This document shows, in pieces, positions 17,135-23,078 of a stretch of 64,000 nt of DNA. Numbering within the stretch: position 1 is the stretch's first letter; every line of letters starts with the position of its first letter. This stretch comes from Candidatus Terraquivivens tengchongensis (GTDB taxonomy: Archaea > Thermoproteota > Nitrososphaeria_A > Caldarchaeales > Wolframiiraptoraceae). The DNA is taken from contig JALNJZ010000002.1 of the NCBI GenBank assembly GCA_023261845.1, forward strand, positions 136,997 to 200,996. Reading direction: 5' to 3'. The notes under the pieces were generated by a model that did no database searches, had not been told where the DNA came from, and was given only the letters and a program-made list of their open reading frames with translations. The translations under genes were made by a program, and so were the position numbers.

Positions 17135-17950
17135 TTAGCTGACGCTGGAGGCCTGTGCCTCCTTCCAGATAAGTATTATTGCATACTCTCTAGGTATGCC
17201 CTTAGACTGCATAATGGTCTCTATATTCCTCTGCAAGGATTCATCAACCCTTGGGCCAAACTTCGCTCCATGCTCTTCTTTTAACTCTTCGTAGAGTTTG
17301 TCAGCAAGCTCGGTGTACGTTGTTAAAGAATAAATTTTTTTCGGCAACTCAGAAATCGTTCTAGCCATTTCTTCCAGTTCTCTAATCTTCTTTTTCTTCT
17401 CAGAAAGTTCTTGCCTAAGGATTGTGACCTTTGCCTCTAAGCTTGCTTTAAGCTCTTGAGGCACGGACACGTTCGAGCTTTCCTTATATTTCAGCGTATC
17501 TAACTCAACGATCGAGATACATAATTCCGTCTCAATATTCGAAAATTCAGTCTCCAATTTGCTCTTAGCCGCATTAATTTTTTCAACTAAAGACGCCGAC
17601 TCACCAACTATTTGCTCCCTCATCGCGTTCCATCTTGCCAAAACCTCTCTAATGGTTGCAATACTGATGTCCTGTTCCAGAAGCATCTTTTGGAATATTT
17701 GCTCCCGTATCTTTACTTCTTGTATCTTTGACATGAGAGCGTCATACCTATCAAAAGCTTCTTTAACTATTGAAACCTCAAGGTCCTTAGGTGGTACGAT
17801 ACTCTCAGGTGGTTTTTCTTGCAACTTTGCTTCTGTTTCTATAGTGCTTACTTCAGGCTCTAGCTGAGGAACTTCCTCTACTATGTCCTTCGGCATTTTT
17901 TCTTCTTTAAACTTTATAACTATCTTTTTTGGCATTATAGAACCTCCCAA
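17135..17950 (-). CDS. coiled-coil protein, function unknown
   Basis: 271 aa, E/K-rich with heptad-like segments. Confidence 0.45.
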   Translation of the reverse strand: MGGSIMPKKIVIKFKEEKMPKDIVEEVPQLEPEVSTIETEAKLQEKPPESIVPPKDLEVSIVKEAFDRYDALMSKIQEVKIREQIFQKMLLEQDISIATIREVLARWNAMREQIVGESASLVEKINAAKSKLETEFSNIETELCISIVELDTLKYKESSNVSVPQELKASLEAKVTILRQELSEKKKKIRELEEMARTISELPKKIYSLTTYTELADKLYEELKEEHGAKFGPRVDESLQRNIETIMQSKGIPREYAIILIWKEAQASSVS

Positions 17951-17985: not shown

Positions 17986-18615
17986 TCATCCCTTCTTATT
18001 TGGTAGAAGTTTCTTGGTTTTGCTAAAAAACTTTACTATAGAGTCAATATCAAGCATTTTGGTGGTGCTGCCCTTCGCATCTTCGTTAGTAGCGGGTTTT
18101 TTGGGAATCAAATCAATCATTTGGAGACCGATTAGTGTGCTTTCAAGGACTTTATGCCGCTGTAAACCGAGTGTGAACCTTACGGGCACAACTTTTTCAT
18201 TTTTATCTATTCTAAATACGCCGATCTTGAGGTCCGAAACTTTCCAGCTGGCACTAAATTGCACAGGGTCTATGACCAACGCTATGGCCTTAGGAAACAT
18301 AGCCTGGTAGGCTTTTTGTGTCTCAATATCTATGGGTGACATAAAGACGTTTAAACCGGGATGCGAATGGTACCAGCCAACTATATACAGGTCTGGAATA
18401 TTCTCTACCAAGACTTCGGCAACCAGGGCCATAACGCTCTCCTCAAGCTTAACGTATGCGGGTGAGCTTTGTTGAAGACCCGTAACAGCATCCCAGACTT
18501 CAACAACGTCCGATACGACTTTTCCTACCATTAACCCTGCGACTTCTTGATTAAGGTTGCTAATGGAGTGATGAAGTATCTTACCAAGAGCTAAGGGATA
18601 AATACGTGCCCTCAT
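17986..18615 (-). CDS. Rpn11-like JAMM/MPN+ isopeptidase (putative pro-ubiquitin processing enzyme/deubiquitinase)
   Basis: MPN fold with a glutamate in EVAGLMVGK and the JAMM motif GWYHSHPGLNVFMSPID. Divergently adjacent to the Ub-E2-E1-RING operon. Confidence 0.85.
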   Translation of the reverse strand: MRARIYPLALGKILHHSISNLNQEVAGLMVGKVVSDVVEVWDAVTGLQQSSPAYVKLEESVMALVAEVLVENIPDLYIVGWYHSHPGLNVFMSPIDIETQKAYQAMFPKAIALVIDPVQFSASWKVSDLKIGVFRIDKNEKVVPVRFTLGLQRHKVLESTLIGLQMIDLIPKKPATNEDAKGSTTKMLDIDSIVKFFSKTKKLLPNKKG

Positions 18616-18750
18616 GGAACCTGCATATTAATGCTTAACCATATTAATTAACGTTTGAAACGACCAATGAGGTTGCCAAATAGCCCTTAGCGTAATGCGC
18701 CCAAAATATATGGGAATTCCCGGCGTTGTTTGCACGTAACCCCCAATCGC

Positions 18751-18758
18751 TTTAAAAA
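18751..18758 (+). promoter_or_regulatory. TATA-like element (TTTAAAAA) in the divergent rpn11/ub intergenic region
   Basis: AT-rich box about 50 nt upstream of the Ub ATG. A GGGGG SD-like stretch lies just before the start. Low specificity. Confidence 0.25.
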
Positions 18759-18809
18759 GTTAATACTTAAATACGTTACAAGTAAAGTGCCGATGGGGGT
18801 TAACGACTT

Positions 18810-19091
18810 ATGAAAATCAAAGTTATACCTGCGGTTGGTGGCGGTAGCCCTCTAGAATTGGAGGTATCACCAAACGCAACAATAGGGGCAGTTAAGGCGA
18901 AAATTTGCGCGATTAAGAAACTTCCACCAGACACCACGTACCTAACCTACAAGGGTAGGGCCTTAAAAGAAACGGAAACACTCGCAAACATAGGCATATC
19001 AGAAGGCGACAAATTGGTCATCATAACGAGAACAGTGGGGGGTGACGCTTCTGGAGACCTACTCAGAATTACCCGAACCTCTGTGGAATAA
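18810..19091 (+). CDS. ubiquitin-like beta-grasp protein (pro-ubiquitin with C-terminal extension after Gly-Gly)
   Basis: MKIKVIPAVGGGSPLELEV...KGRALKETETLANIGISEGDKLVIITRTVGG followed by a 15-aa tail DASGDLLRITRTSVE. Length and pattern match ubiquitin. Confidence 0.8.
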   Translation: MKIKVIPAVGGGSPLELEVSPNATIGAVKAKICAIKKLPPDTTYLTYKGRALKETETLANIGISEGDKLVIITRTVGGDASGDLLRITRTSVE

Positions 19092-19557
19092 AAGACTGGC
19101 CGTAGAGTATAGGTTAATGCAGGAGCGTGACCCTCCGTTATTCGATATAGTTGATGGTGATCTGACACACTATACGGGCGTGATAGTAGGCTCCGGATAC
19201 TACGAGGGTGGGTACTTTAAGGTAGAGATAAAAATACCAAGGGCATACCCATACGTGCCGCCTGATGTTGTCTGGCATACAAGGATATGGCATCCCAATT
19301 TCACAGACGAAGTCCCTGCTAGGATATGCGAATCCATTTTCAAAGATGATTGGAGACCTGGATTGTACCTCGTGAACATCATCGAAGCTCTCCAAAATCT
19401 GTTAGCCAACCCAAACCCGGATGATCCGCTCAATTCGATAGCCGCTTATGAAATGAAGTATAGACCTGATGTTTTTTTAAATAGGGTTAGGTACTACATA
19501 CAGTTATACGCAACCCCAGAAAAGCTCTTTGAGAAAAAGTTAAAGTGGCGAATATAG
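19042..19557 (+). CDS. ubiquitin-conjugating enzyme E2 (UBC fold)
   Basis: HPN motif and catalytic Cys (IWHPNFTDEVPARICESI), followed by W.PG...NIIEALQNLLANPNPDDPLN, typical of UBC domains. Confidence 0.85.
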   Translation: MTLLETYSELPEPLWNKRLAVEYRLMQERDPPLFDIVDGDLTHYTGVIVGSGYYEGGYFKVEIKIPRAYPYVPPDVVWHTRIWHPNFTDEVPARICESIFKDDWRPGLYLVNIIEALQNLLANPNPDDPLNSIAAYEMKYRPDVFLNRVRYYIQLYATPEKLFEKKLKWRI

Positions 19558-19717
19558 CTAAAATTTCGTTTTCCACAATCTCGTGGAGCGTAAGATACAG
19601 GAGAGTAGAATTCCTAAAATACATCTACAATGGATATGCACTAAAAGGGTTTACAAGACCCTATTCTAGAGGATAATAAACATTATTATATCGTTTTAGC
19701 AGACTTTCGAGCTGTAA

Positions 19718-20905
19718 ATGGAGCCGTATCTGCTGGAAAGATATGATAGACAGATAAGAATCAGCGGATGGGATCAGTGGAAAGTATCGAACTCAACGGT
19801 CTTAATAGCAGGCGTAGGCGCAACGGGTTGCGAGTTAGCAAAGAACCTTTGCCTTGCAGGAATAGGTAAGCTGATCTTAGTTGACAACGATGTGATCGAG
19901 CTCTCGAACCTTAACCGCCAAATGCTTTTTGACGATTCTGATATAGGTTCACCGAAAGCTATAATTGCCAAAGAGAAGCTCCAGAAGATAAACCCCTATG
20001 TTAAGGTTGATGCTTACTATGAGGACATAAGAAAGTTTGACGAATCTATGTTAAAGAACGTGGATGTGTTTTGTTCTTGTCTAGACAACTGGGCAACGAG
20101 AAGGTGGCTCAACTCGCTTGCCGTCGAGCTTAAGAAACCACTCGTGGATACAGCGATCGAAGGTCTTTATGGGAATGTACAGGTTGTAATACCAGGAGAA
20201 ACCGCATGTCTTGAATGTCATGGTGATGCCTTAATCCCTAAGGACACACAATTGGCTGAATGTACACTTAGAAGGCGTAAGCCAGAGGACTTGGCTGAGG
20301 ACTTAAGGAAAAACAAAATCGAGATGCCCTTTGAACTTGTTAAAGAGCTGTTCTCTATGGGTATAAAAACGATTTATGACCTGAAATATACGCCAATAGA
20401 AAGGTTTCAAAAAGAAGGTAGTAAGATTTCCGAGGAGATACTCAGGATAAGGGATCTTCTAAAGCCCAAGCTACCGGCAATTCAAGGAGGAGCATCGGTC
20501 ATAGCAGGTGTGGCATCTTTAGAGGTACTGAAAATAATACATGGTGGAAGCATTGGAAAGGTAGCGAAGCACCTAATAGTCTACGATGGCGTATCACAAA
20601 GGTTAACTAAGGTCACTCTAAAAAGAAGAGAAGACTGCTTTGTTTGTGGCGATATTATGCAAGGAAAACCAATCGAGATAACGGTTAGTCCTGACGACTA
20701 TATATGGAACTTAAAGGAAAAGATAAGTACGTTATTCAGCATACCAGATCCCGAAATCCAGTATAAAAAGTGGATATTAAAAGACGAACAAAAGTTATCG
20801 GAGATAAACATTAAAAGCGACGACATACTATATATCCACACGAGTAGGCGGTACGTGCCAATACCCATAAAGGTGAGCCTTATTGAAAATAGTAGTGGGA
20901 CATGA
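19718..20905 (+). CDS. ubiquitin-activating E1-like enzyme (ThiF/MoeB/UBA family)
   Basis: RYDRQIR..G...Q.K...STVLIAGVGATGCELAKNL nucleotide-binding motif, catalytic Cys region (VFCSCLDNWATRRWLN) and zinc motifs CLECHGD and CFVCGD. The C-terminal roughly 90 aa may be a UBL domain. Confidence 0.9.
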   Translation: MEPYLLERYDRQIRISGWDQWKVSNSTVLIAGVGATGCELAKNLCLAGIGKLILVDNDVIELSNLNRQMLFDDSDIGSPKAIIAKEKLQKINPYVKVDAYYEDIRKFDESMLKNVDVFCSCLDNWATRRWLNSLAVELKKPLVDTAIEGLYGNVQVVIPGETACLECHGDALIPKDTQLAECTLRRRKPEDLAEDLRKNKIEMPFELVKELFSMGIKTIYDLKYTPIERFQKEGSKISEEILRIRDLLKPKLPAIQGGASVIAGVASLEVLKIIHGGSIGKVAKHLIVYDGVSQRLTKVTLKRREDCFVCGDIMQGKPIEITVSPDDYIWNLKEKISTLFSIPDPEIQYKKWILKDEQKLSEINIKSDDILYIHTSRRYVPIPIKVSLIENSSGT

Positions 20906-21113
20906 GGTTTGTGTGGGCAAGTGGATCTGGACAAAGGTTAAGACTGTGAATAGGGTGTGCCCGGTTTGCACTTCCGAAATTGATGAAGGTGCGGCTACAA
21001 CAACGTGCCCCCATTGTGGTTCCGTGGGTCATAAGGCGTGTTTTGATAGTTGGTTAAGTATAAGGAATGCGTGCCCGATATGTAAGAGACCAGTATTGGA
21101 GATGGTGTTATGA
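20883..21113 (+). CDS. small RING-like zinc-finger protein (candidate E3)
   Basis: 76 aa with the pattern C-x2-C-x12-C-x2-C-x4-H-x2-C-x10-C-x2-C. It overlaps the E1 stop, and its own stop overlaps the next ATG (ATGA). Confidence 0.75.
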   Translation: MKIVVGHEVCVGKWIWTKVKTVNRVCPVCTSEIDEGAATTTCPHCGSVGHKACFDSWLSIRNACPICKRPVLEMVL

Positions 21114-21421
21114 GCGAGGAAGAAGAGTTTGTAATAGATCTCGAGTATGTCGATACGCCTAGCGGAAAAGTGGCATCACTCAACACCGTCAAGAAATTGG
21201 CTGAAGCAATTTCTATAGTTCACGAAGAAGCTGAAAAACTATCAACCAAAGTCCTTTCTCTCGAAAGTAAAATACCTGGTGCTGATTTATTAAATAGGTT
21301 AGAGAGTAGGTTAGCGGCTTTGGAGAAGGGCCAAGATCAGATACTTGCACATATAGACTCGTTAATAGAGGCCTTTAACAGTCTCATAGAAACTTTAGAG
21401 AAAACATTGAGAAAGGATTAA
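21110..21421 (+). CDS. coiled-coil protein, last gene of the Ub operon
   Basis: 103-aa acidic coiled-coil. ATGA overlap with the RING gene indicates co-translation. Confidence 0.45.
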   Translation: MSEEEEFVIDLEYVDTPSGKVASLNTVKKLAEAISIVHEEAEKLSTKVLSLESKIPGADLLNRLESRLAALEKGQDQILAHIDSLIEAFNSLIETLEKTLRKD

Positions 21422-22257
21422 GGAGTAAGTATAGCTTTCCTGAATTCTCCTACCAACTTCTCCAGACTCGCCTTCCGCTCCGTAAGCTCGTTTATATCGT
21501 TTAACAGCTCTGCTTTCTTTACCTCTAACCTAGAAATTTCTTCGCTCATCTCCCGCATCCTATTTTCTAACTCACGTGTCATCTCTTCGCGCTCCTTTAT
21601 TTTCATAAGAGCGTCCGATAACTCCCTCTCCCTTTTTGCGATCCTTTCAAGTCTTATCTCTTTTAGCTTAAACATGCGGTTTATCTTATTTACCTCTTCG
21701 TCAATCTTATGTAGCATTCCCTCTAACGATACCAAGTAACGCTGGGATAGGTCTTTAAGTTCCGCCTCTATTCTGTTTTTCTTCTCTTCGAGCTCCCTAA
21801 CATACGCGTCAAAGTTTGATAATTTATGCTCCTTCTCTTCAAGGTCCGCCTTCCACTTCTTCAACTCGTTTTTGAGAATCTCGAGCTCACTCTTTTCTTT
21901 AATTAACTTCTCTACATCTTCTCTAAGCATTGCTCTTTCTCGTGAGAGCAGCTCTAAAACATCATTAAGACCTTCTTTGATGGAATCGAACCATTCTTTA
22001 TATTCCTTTATAACTTTCAACTCCTTAACGATACTTTCTGCGCTTTCTGCTGCTTCGCTTACTCTTGCTAAGAATTCCTCCGGGAATGTTCTTTCTCGTG
22101 AAAGTTCCTTAACATTTTCTGAAATTTCGATAAGTGTTCTCTCAAGCGAACTAACCCTTCTATCCATTTTCTCTTCGAGTTGGAGCCTAAGTTCCTCTAA
22201 CTCTCTTCTAAACTCATTAAGGATCTCTTCTTTGGACTTTCCTCCAAGAAAACCCAT
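21418..22257 (-). CDS. highly charged coiled-coil protein with PspA/ESCRT-III-like N-terminus
   Basis: 279 aa. The N-terminus MGFLGGKSKEEILNEFRRELEELRLQLEEK resembles the PspA/Vipp1/Snf7 N-terminal helix. The remainder is an E/K/R-rich coiled coil. Confidence 0.45.
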   Translation of the reverse strand: MGFLGGKSKEEILNEFRRELEELRLQLEEKMDRRVSSLERTLIEISENVKELSRERTFPEEFLARVSEAAESAESIVKELKVIKEYKEWFDSIKEGLNDVLELLSRERAMLREDVEKLIKEKSELEILKNELKKWKADLEEKEHKLSNFDAYVRELEEKKNRIEAELKDLSQRYLVSLEGMLHKIDEEVNKINRMFKLKEIRLERIAKRERELSDALMKIKEREEMTRELENRMREMSEEISRLEVKKAELLNDINELTERKASLEKLVGEFRKAILTP

Positions 22258-22382: not shown

Positions 22383-23078
22383 GTGGTGGGTTTGGCGGTT
22401 TCATCCCAAGCAGTATTGGGGCGGTTTTTTAAGCTAGCGTTGATTGTGACAGGAATAGGTGCGATCCATATCCTCACGCTATTCATGTCTTGGTACACGG
22501 TCGTGTCAGATACGATAACCACAACCACCATACAGGGATATGCCATCGCTGAGTCTCTTTACATGTCAATCGCAGGGGGTATAGTTTGCGGAATTGCTCT
22601 TATACTGTCCTCCACTTCATCGAATATAATAACTGCGAAGTGGCTCGTCGGAGCTACTGCACTTGTCGGAGCTCTTCTCGCAATAACATCACCAGCTTAT
22701 ACGCACTTCATAGTAATACCTGCGCTACAGGCAAAGGGGTATTTAGAAATAGGAATATTCATGTCATACTTTTCAGCAATAGCGATGTTTGTCCCTGCCG
22801 CCACTATAATAGCAACACCCATTAGGGTCGAAGTAGCACCTCACGTCGGGCCTCCTTATCTTGGGACTTCAGCCCCGATTGTTGAGGAAGCTGTTGAACT
22901 GACACATGTAATCGATATACCTCCCGGTGCTATTTGCGGGATATGTTACCAAGAATTGGACCCAGAAACCACCATGATGTGTAGCAATTGCCAGACGATG
23001 TTTCATAAAGGTTGCATCGATATCTGGGTAAACTTAAACGGTACGTGTCCAAGCTGTAAGAAGCCCGTAGTCAGATAA
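22383..23078 (+). CDS. polytopic membrane protein with C-terminal RING-like zinc finger (candidate membrane-anchored E3)
   Basis: About 5 hydrophobic helices followed by CGICYQELDPETTMMCSNCQTMFHKGCIDIWVNLNGTCPSCKKP, the same C4-H-C3 spacing as the small RING protein. Confidence 0.65.
   Translation: MVGLAVSSQAVLGRFFKLALIVTGIGAIHILTLFMSWYTVVSDTITTTTIQGYAIAESLYMSIAGGIVCGIALILSSTSSNIITAKWLVGATALVGALLAITSPAYTHFIVIPALQAKGYLEIGIFMSYFSAIAMFVPAATIIATPIRVEVAPHVGPPYLGTSAPIVEEAVELTHVIDIPPGAICGICYQELDPETTMMCSNCQTMFHKGCIDIWVNLNGTCPSCKKPVVR

Follow-up and report, generated by a model that had tools for sequence, protein, structure and literature searches.

The ubiquitin ORF in the window (the whole analyzed stretch of 64,000 nucleotides) runs past the codons for its Gly-Gly motif, and the downstream E2 gene begins in the coding region of the resulting tail. 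This arrangement raises the question of whether the tail is a selected control point for ubiquitin activation, as the original prediction held, or a consequence of the overlap between two adjacent genes.

Organization of the ubiquitin locus

The 93-codon ORF at positions 18810 to 19091 (plus strand) encodes a product that matches the Pfam ubiquitin family (PF00240; 2e-12). Direct reading of this ORF bears out the predicted 15-residue tail after the Gly-Gly of residues 77 and 78. The E2 ORF opens 3' of a TAA at positions 19024 to 19026, in frame +1 relative to the ubiquitin ORF, and, when counted from position 19042, it overlaps the latter by 50 nt. A candidate E2 start does lie at the predicted position in another frame, but the codon at 19042 to 19044 is GTG and not ATG; two of its bases are the last two of Gly78, and the third is the first of Asp79. 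The Pfam UBC domain starts at E2 residue 18 (position 19093), just beyond the ubiquitin stop codon, and the overlap therefore holds only the N-terminal E2 segment that precedes the domain. The JAMM protease gene is encoded divergently, as predicted. The coordinates of all features are given in Table 1.

Table 1. Features of the ubiquitin locus in the window
Feature	Position	Strand	Basis or remark
Rpn11-type JAMM metalloprotease, divergent from ubiquitin	17986-18615	-	Pfam JAB, 1e-19; CsRpn11 match
Mature ubiquitin-like modifier, residues 1 to 78, ending in TVGG	18810-19043	+	Pfam ubiquitin; CsUb match
Gly77-Gly78 codons, GGG GGT	19038-19043	+	Read from sequence; predicted cleavage after 19043
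15-codon tail DASGDLLRITRTSVE (19044-19088) and TAA (19089-19091)	19044-19091	+	Ubiquitin frame across the E2 5' coding region
E2 (UBC), counted from GTG, the only canonical start	19042-19557	+	Pfam UQ_con, 5e-28
CTG at the conserved "NTG GAG" site, alternative E2 start	19051-19053	+	Homologous codons in relatives
E1, ThiF adenylation domain and C-terminal ubiquitin-fold domain	19718-20905	+	Pfam ThiF, 2e-62
Small RING finger protein (E3-like), TTG start	20883-21113	+	Pfam zf-RING_2, 2e-10
Conserved ORF, 103 aa, ATG start, no significant Pfam match	21110-21421	+	

The genes for ubiquitin, E2, E1, and the RING protein follow each other in this order, and the synteny is common to loci L001 to L007. 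Its genes and their order identify the locus as a Caldiarchaeum-type operon for eukaryote-type ubiquitylation, from a Terraquivivens-like archaeon; its nearest genomic relatives are metagenome-assembled genomes (MAGs) named Candidatus Terraquivivens, of the order Caldarchaeales (formerly "Aigarchaeota"). With it, the ubiquitin systems of archaea that are thought to predate eukaryotic ubiquitylation gain a Terraquivivens-type member. Residues 314 to 377 of the E1 match the Pfam ubiquitin family (2e-7), and this C-terminal domain resembles the E2-recruiting ubiquitin-fold domain of eukaryotic E1 enzymes. The TTG start of the RING gene lies 23 nt inside the 3' end of the E1 gene, and the identical overlap was called in L001. 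The chain of overlaps goes on with the 103-aa ORF, the ATG of which overlaps the RING stop codon by 4 nt.

The gene set, the gene order, and the divergent Rpn11 gene are shared with the operon of Caldiarchaeum subterraneum (Csub_C1473 to C1477), in which ubiquitin also ends in TVGG at residues 77 and 78, followed by a short tail. For that operon, nine residues after the Gly-Gly of the ubiquitin-like protein and partial overlap of the five cluster genes have been described (Nunoura 2011, PMC3082918). Unlike in C. subterraneum, the E1 gene of the window is set off from the E2 gene by a spacer of 160 nt (19558 to 19717). This spacer is AT rich and is all that lies between the two genes; it is thus likely that ubiquitin-E2 is transcribed as one unit and E1-RING as another in the window. 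Between E2 and E1, several Terraquivivens relatives have a gene of the AIM24 family on the opposite strand (3764 to 4435 in L001; 3787 to 4458 in L003 and L004); this insert is absent from the window and from its closest relative, L057. A scan of positions 18500 to 21500 for bacterial-type promoters and terminators, which is ill suited to archaea, returned counts at or below the level of shuffled sequences.

The window protein shares the beta-grasp fold and the C-terminal Gly-Gly with the SAMP/MoaD-type ubiquitin-like proteins, some of which have C-terminal extensions that are removed by a JAMM protease (the systems have JAMM1 proteases). It matches Pfam ubiquitin and not ThiS/MoaD, however, and its locus contains an E2 and a RING E3, whereas SAMP systems have neither. 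We therefore rejected a SAMP/MoaD/ThiS-type assignment: only ubiquitin-family Pfam matches were obtained, and the E2 and RING genes are present.

Two further genes near the operon deserve mention. A 271-aa protein without a Pfam match is encoded directly downstream of the JAMM gene (17135 to 17950, minus strand), and genes for proteins of 266 to 268 aa, also without a domain match, occupy the equivalent position beside JAB in L001, L003, and L005; the 271-aa neighbor may be a partner, so far uncharacterized, with which the Rpn11 homologue acts. Another RING-H2 protein, 231 aa long, is encoded at 22383 to 23078 (plus strand), with a zf-RING_2 match (2e-9) at its C terminus. Its N-terminal two-thirds is hydrophobic and membrane spanning in appearance, so that the operon may have an E3 anchored in the membrane encoded close to it.

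Predicted processing of the ubiquitin precursor

The window ubiquitin matches C. subterraneum ubiquitin (CsUb, 2MQJ) with an E value of 7.5e-39 (~1e-38 for the 2MQJ and 6FJ7 matches), and the JAMM protein matches CsRpn11 (PDB 6FJU) over residues 1 to 169 (E value, 1.7e-58). The catalytic HxHx7Sx2D motif of the JAMM protein is present: GWYHSHPGLNVFMSPID aligns with CsRpn11, with GWYHSHPGL..SP.D conserved. In the AlphaFold (AF2) model, residues 1 to 76 of the ubiquitin adopt the beta-grasp fold (pLDDT, ~90), while residues 77 to 93 are predicted to be disordered (pLDDT, <50).

That pro-ubiquitin can be matured by a free Rpn11 has already been demonstrated biochemically for C. subterraneum, which belongs to a sister genus. 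Its Rpn11 homologue strips the nine residues CGEPIRRAA and exposes TVGG; pro-ubiquitin in its full-length form was not activated by E1, and cleaved or Gly-Gly-truncated forms were active (Hennell James 2017, PMC5654768). Cleavage exactly after Gly78 was confirmed, and the Rpn11-ubiquitin complex was solved (Fuchs 2018, PMC6043591). CsRpn11 and CsJAMM did not cross-react (PMC6043591), and CsRpn11 also cleaves linear ubiquitin fusions such as Ub-GFP (PMC5654768, PMC6043591). By analogy, the neighboring JAMM protein of the window is the expected tail-processing enzyme and deubiquitylase, and the uncut window precursor would be blocked from activation by E1. The obligatory processing by JAMM that had been proposed is thus supported by homology to the C. 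subterraneum proteins (PMC5654768, PMC6043591) and carried over to this locus by analogy, and the published precursor-and-protease mechanism appears to be right in kind here.

The residues that follow Gly-Gly matter for the known enzyme. Among variants of the C. subterraneum precursor (CsUb-pre), C79G and E81W were cleaved faster, whereas C79E (a change at P1') and G80W were not cleaved (PMC6043591). The window tail is unrelated to CGEPIRRAA, and its P1' residue is Asp79 instead of the cysteine of C. subterraneum. Efficient cleavage of the window tail is therefore not guaranteed, given that C79E abolished the processing of CsUb-pre (PMC6043591). Natural P1' residues elsewhere include proline (L029, tail PDRAC), tyrosine (L024 and L025, YGEPIRRAA), and phenylalanine (L020 and L028). 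Set against the finding that bulky or acidic residues substituted early in the tail stop cleavage by CsRpn11 (C79E and G80W), these residues suggest either that Rpn11 orthologues vary in their tolerance or that some precursors mature poorly.

Eukaryotic ubiquitin precursors (polyubiquitin, fusions of ubiquitin to ribosomal proteins, NEDD8, and SUMO) likewise carry residues after Gly-Gly that a protease removes before E1 acts; polyubiquitin has one extra C-terminal residue, and NEDD8 and SUMO have tails. Their processing is carried out by cysteine-protease deubiquitylases and ULPs, whereas a free Rpn11-type JAMM metalloprotease would be expected to act in the window, by analogy with C. subterraneum. 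In contrast to the eukaryotic precursors, the window tail results from overlap with the next gene of the operon, and the protein has neither a fusion partner nor polyubiquitin repeats.

Variation and origin of the tail

Searching with the protein and scanning a single genome for each species yielded 49 species-level loci, plus further contigs. Gly-Gly is found at residues 77 and 78 in every one of the 49 species. The tail lengths in these species are 0, 1, 2, 4 to 10, 15, 18, and 20 residues, and the longest tail, of 23 residues, occurs in one metagenomic variant. A tail is kept in 34 species, in 2 of which it consists of a single residue, and is lacking in 15. Tail sequences are unrelated from genus to genus. 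In L005, an example of the tail-less state, the junction reads GGC GGC TAA tccc TTG, and mature ubiquitin is encoded directly. In a neighbor-joining tree of ubiquitin and E2, the tail-less state appears in at least three separate clades.

The position of the E2 start varies much less: it lies between -1 and +9 nt from the last base of the Gly-Gly codons in 43 of the 49 species. In about 30 species, the ubiquitin and E2 genes genuinely overlap; in the rest, the stop codon comes right after Gly-Gly and E2 starts a few nucleotides on. In five species, the E2 gene is 126 to 210 nt away from ubiquitin. A 214-kb JGI metagenome contig (Ga0209394_1000010; L061) has the same sequence as the window across the ubiquitin-E2 junction. 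A pattern scan of metagenomes for Terraquivivens-type junctions found three loci only, namely, L061 and two duplicates of known variants, and so added no variant that would bear on the choice between GTG and CTG as the E2 start.

Eight Terraquivivens-like loci were compared codon by codon across the overlap. In the E2 frame, there were 121 synonymous and 44 nonsynonymous pairwise codon differences, versus 15 synonymous and 160 nonsynonymous differences in the tail frame, and variable residues numbered 4 of 14 in E2 and 11 of 14 in the tail. No purifying selection on the tail frame was seen in the codon differences of these eight loci. The length of the tail follows the choice of E2 codons. In L010 and L059, the tails are of 10 aa: an E2 proline codon is CCT, and CCT GAA gives TGA in the ubiquitin frame. 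In the window, this proline is encoded by CCC, a synonymous codon, so the ubiquitin frame continues to a TAA within the E2 codons AAT AAA, giving the 15-aa tail. Furthermore, a 1-nt insertion after the Gly-Gly codons in T. ruidianensis and T. tikiterensis, found in three independent assemblies, produces a wholly different tail, GRLWRPTQSYLNLYGIRG, and the E2 N terminus (SLEAYSELPE.LWNKRL) is kept despite this insertion.

We also compared the tail with chance expectation. In the -1 frame of the long ORFs of the window, at least 15 codons are open at 34% of positions (median, 9 codons). Read-through of at least 15 codons thus has a chance of 0.34, and the length of the tail is unremarkable. A stop directly after Gly-Gly is found in 15 of the 49 species versus ~7% expected by chance. 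Since the immediate stop is commoner than chance, selection seems sometimes to favor the tail-less form, and whether a gene has a tail would not be entirely neutral. Taken together, the codon, frame, length, and disorder data point to a tolerated by-product of a ubiquitin ORF that enters the 5' end of the E2 gene, and the tail is best read, from these sequence comparisons, as such a by-product rather than as a selected control point.

The model that we consider likely is as follows. Ubiquitin would be translated as a 93-residue precursor, and its disordered 15-residue tail would have to be removed after Gly78 before E1 could adenylate the C terminus, the neighboring Rpn11-type JAMM protein being the expected remover. 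The E2 initiation site would be set directly against the Gly-Gly codons, and these probably act as its ribosome-binding site too. With no stop after Gly-Gly in the Terraquivivens-like lineage, the ubiquitin frame would run through the 5' region of E2 as far as a chance TAA. Such a tail could be tolerated because Rpn11, needed anyway for deubiquitylation, trims anything that follows Gly-Gly. Most likely, then, the tail is not a designed pro-peptide.

The strongest competing explanation takes the tail to be a regulatory pro-peptide under selection, the presence and P1'/P2' residues of which set Rpn11-dependent maturation and so gate the entry of ubiquitin into the E1-E2-E3 cascade. The inertness of the uncut C. 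subterraneum precursor towards E1 fits this reading, as does the strong effect of the post-Gly-Gly residues on the rate of CsRpn11, and the Asp at P1' in the window could slow cleavage, given the block by C79E. The persistence of tails in 34 of 49 species would also allow for some benefit, e.g., delayed activation. However, 15 species in at least three clades encode mature ubiquitin directly, the tail sequence lacks conservation from one genus to another and moves to a different frame through a 1-nt indel, and the excess of nonsynonymous differences lies in the tail frame. In addition, sites that are synonymous in E2 set the tail length, which is at chance expectation. A regulatory pro-peptide is thus unlikely, and the built-in control point of the original prediction was not borne out.

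The gene pair resembles overlapping (overprinted) neighbors in prokaryotic operons, in which the second gene starts within the ORF of the first and one frame is constrained while the other drifts. The overlap here is longer (41 to 50 nt) than the usual 1 to 4 nt. An overprinted peptide that is removed after translation has a sequence that is nearly free to vary. The useful part of the comparison is that the tails look like evolutionary noise from gene overlap that is tolerated via trimming by the deubiquitylase. This suggests a simple route to a precursor ubiquitin before any regulatory role and is a caution against taking each tail as a sign of regulation.

Start of the E2 gene and its possible coupling to ubiquitin

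Across genera, the E2 N terminus is encoded by "NTG GAG" (ATG, TTG, or GTG followed by Glu), located 2 to 8 nt after the Gly-Gly codons. The E2 ATG of L024 and L025, two MAGs similar to C. subterraneum, is at +2, inside tail codons 1 and 2, so that E2 starts directly after Gly-Gly there too. Compared with C. subterraneum, the window has ~7 extra nucleotides between the Gly-Gly codons and the NTG GAG site, the site itself is CTG, and there is a new in-frame GTG upstream. The CTG at 19051 is homologous to the NTG of the other genera and lies 5 nt downstream of GGTGA (19041 to 19045). The homologous codon is TTG in L057, the closest relative, the ubiquitin of which is 96% identical and which has no in-frame GTG upstream; it is TTG in L059 too. 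All seven nucleotides between the Gly-Gly codons and the NTG GAG codon vary among close relatives, and the in-frame GTG at -1 is retained in six of six CTG lineages with an intact frame. Taken from these comparisons, E2 would start either at GTG 19042 or at CTG 19051, both of which are inside the tail-coding stretch. An ATG at ~19117 was rejected as the start: it lies inside the conserved N-terminal helix of the UBC domain and is ATA in L003 and L010.

The Gly-Gly codons are part of a G-rich run, GGGGGGTGA (19037 to 19045), that has the look of a Shine-Dalgarno sequence of the archaeal kind, placed for E2. Motifs of the type GGTGA(T) or GAGGTG are found 5 to 9 nt upstream of several operon-internal genes in the window, a pattern that does not single out either of the two candidate E2 starts, and GTG 19042 is itself inside the GGTGA motif. 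The Gly-Gly codons probably double as the E2 ribosome-binding site, a suggestion that is confounded by the fact that glycine codons are G rich by necessity.

Because the E2 start keeps its place against the Gly-Gly codons across species, cotranslation of ubiquitin and E2 is plausible. The tight translational coupling that had been proposed is therefore in keeping with the start position in 43 of 49 species, but the five species with a distant E2 gene and the length of the overlap weigh against it. An overlap of 41 to 50 nt exceeds typical reinitiation distances, and the 4-nt gap of the tail-less relatives would suit termination-reinitiation better. Nor did folding of the junction reveal a special RNA structure (z = 0.18).

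A more elaborate possibility is that E2 starts at CTG 19051 by means of a Shine-Dalgarno sequence formed by the Val-Gly-Gly codons and that the tail, its first residues being set by the spacer, tunes Rpn11-dependent maturation, thereby linking the output of ubiquitin and E2. If this were true, the invariant ubiquitin C terminus would double as the E2 ribosome-binding site, and the E2 proteins of T. ruidianensis and T. tikiterensis would be entirely reliant on CTG. We regard this combined scheme as doubtful, to about the same degree as the regulatory pro-peptide, and we favor the by-product model.

A further model, which we regard as very improbable, has ribosomes shift frame at the G run, so that ubiquitin and E2 emerge as a single polypeptide that Rpn11 then cuts after Gly-Gly to free both, in analogy with the eukaryotic fusions of ubiquitin to ribosomal proteins. 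CsRpn11 does cut linear fusions such as Ub-GFP, and E2 of T. ruidianensis and T. tikiterensis has no canonical start in frame. However, the shift needed differs among relatives (+1 in the window and -1 in L003 and L012), a fusion is impossible in the tail-less species, where a stop follows Gly-Gly, and, at the conserved site, an unambiguous ATG, GTG, or TTG precedes GAG in most species. Moreover, a canonical slippery heptamer is absent, and folding of positions 19000 to 19120 gave no RNA structure that could stimulate frameshifting or mask the E2 start (z = 0.18, similar to shuffled sequences).

A sequencing or assembly artefact, with the true ubiquitin stop right after Gly-Gly, is scarcely credible: the Gly-Gly codons do fall within six consecutive G residues, an indel-prone homopolymer in some sequencing technologies, but the frame and the 15-codon tail with its overlap recur in six or more assemblies made independently from different samples (L001, L002, L008, L009, L057, and L058), no stop in any frame right after Gly-Gly could be exposed by a 1-nt error with E2 intact, and the experimentally studied C. 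subterraneum homologue is likewise tailed.

The E2 genes of T. ruidianensis and T. tikiterensis (L003/L011, L004, and L012; 3234 to 3260) are a separate observation. These E2 proteins are full length and 90% to 95% identical to the window E2, and the 1-nt insertion places their frame at +2, in which the conserved N-terminal helix is not preceded by any ATG, GTG, or TTG. Gene callers shortened them to 123 to 136 aa. The sole candidate start is a CTG located 7 nt behind GGAGGTG or GGGGGTG, making either CTG initiation or recoding possible in these species.
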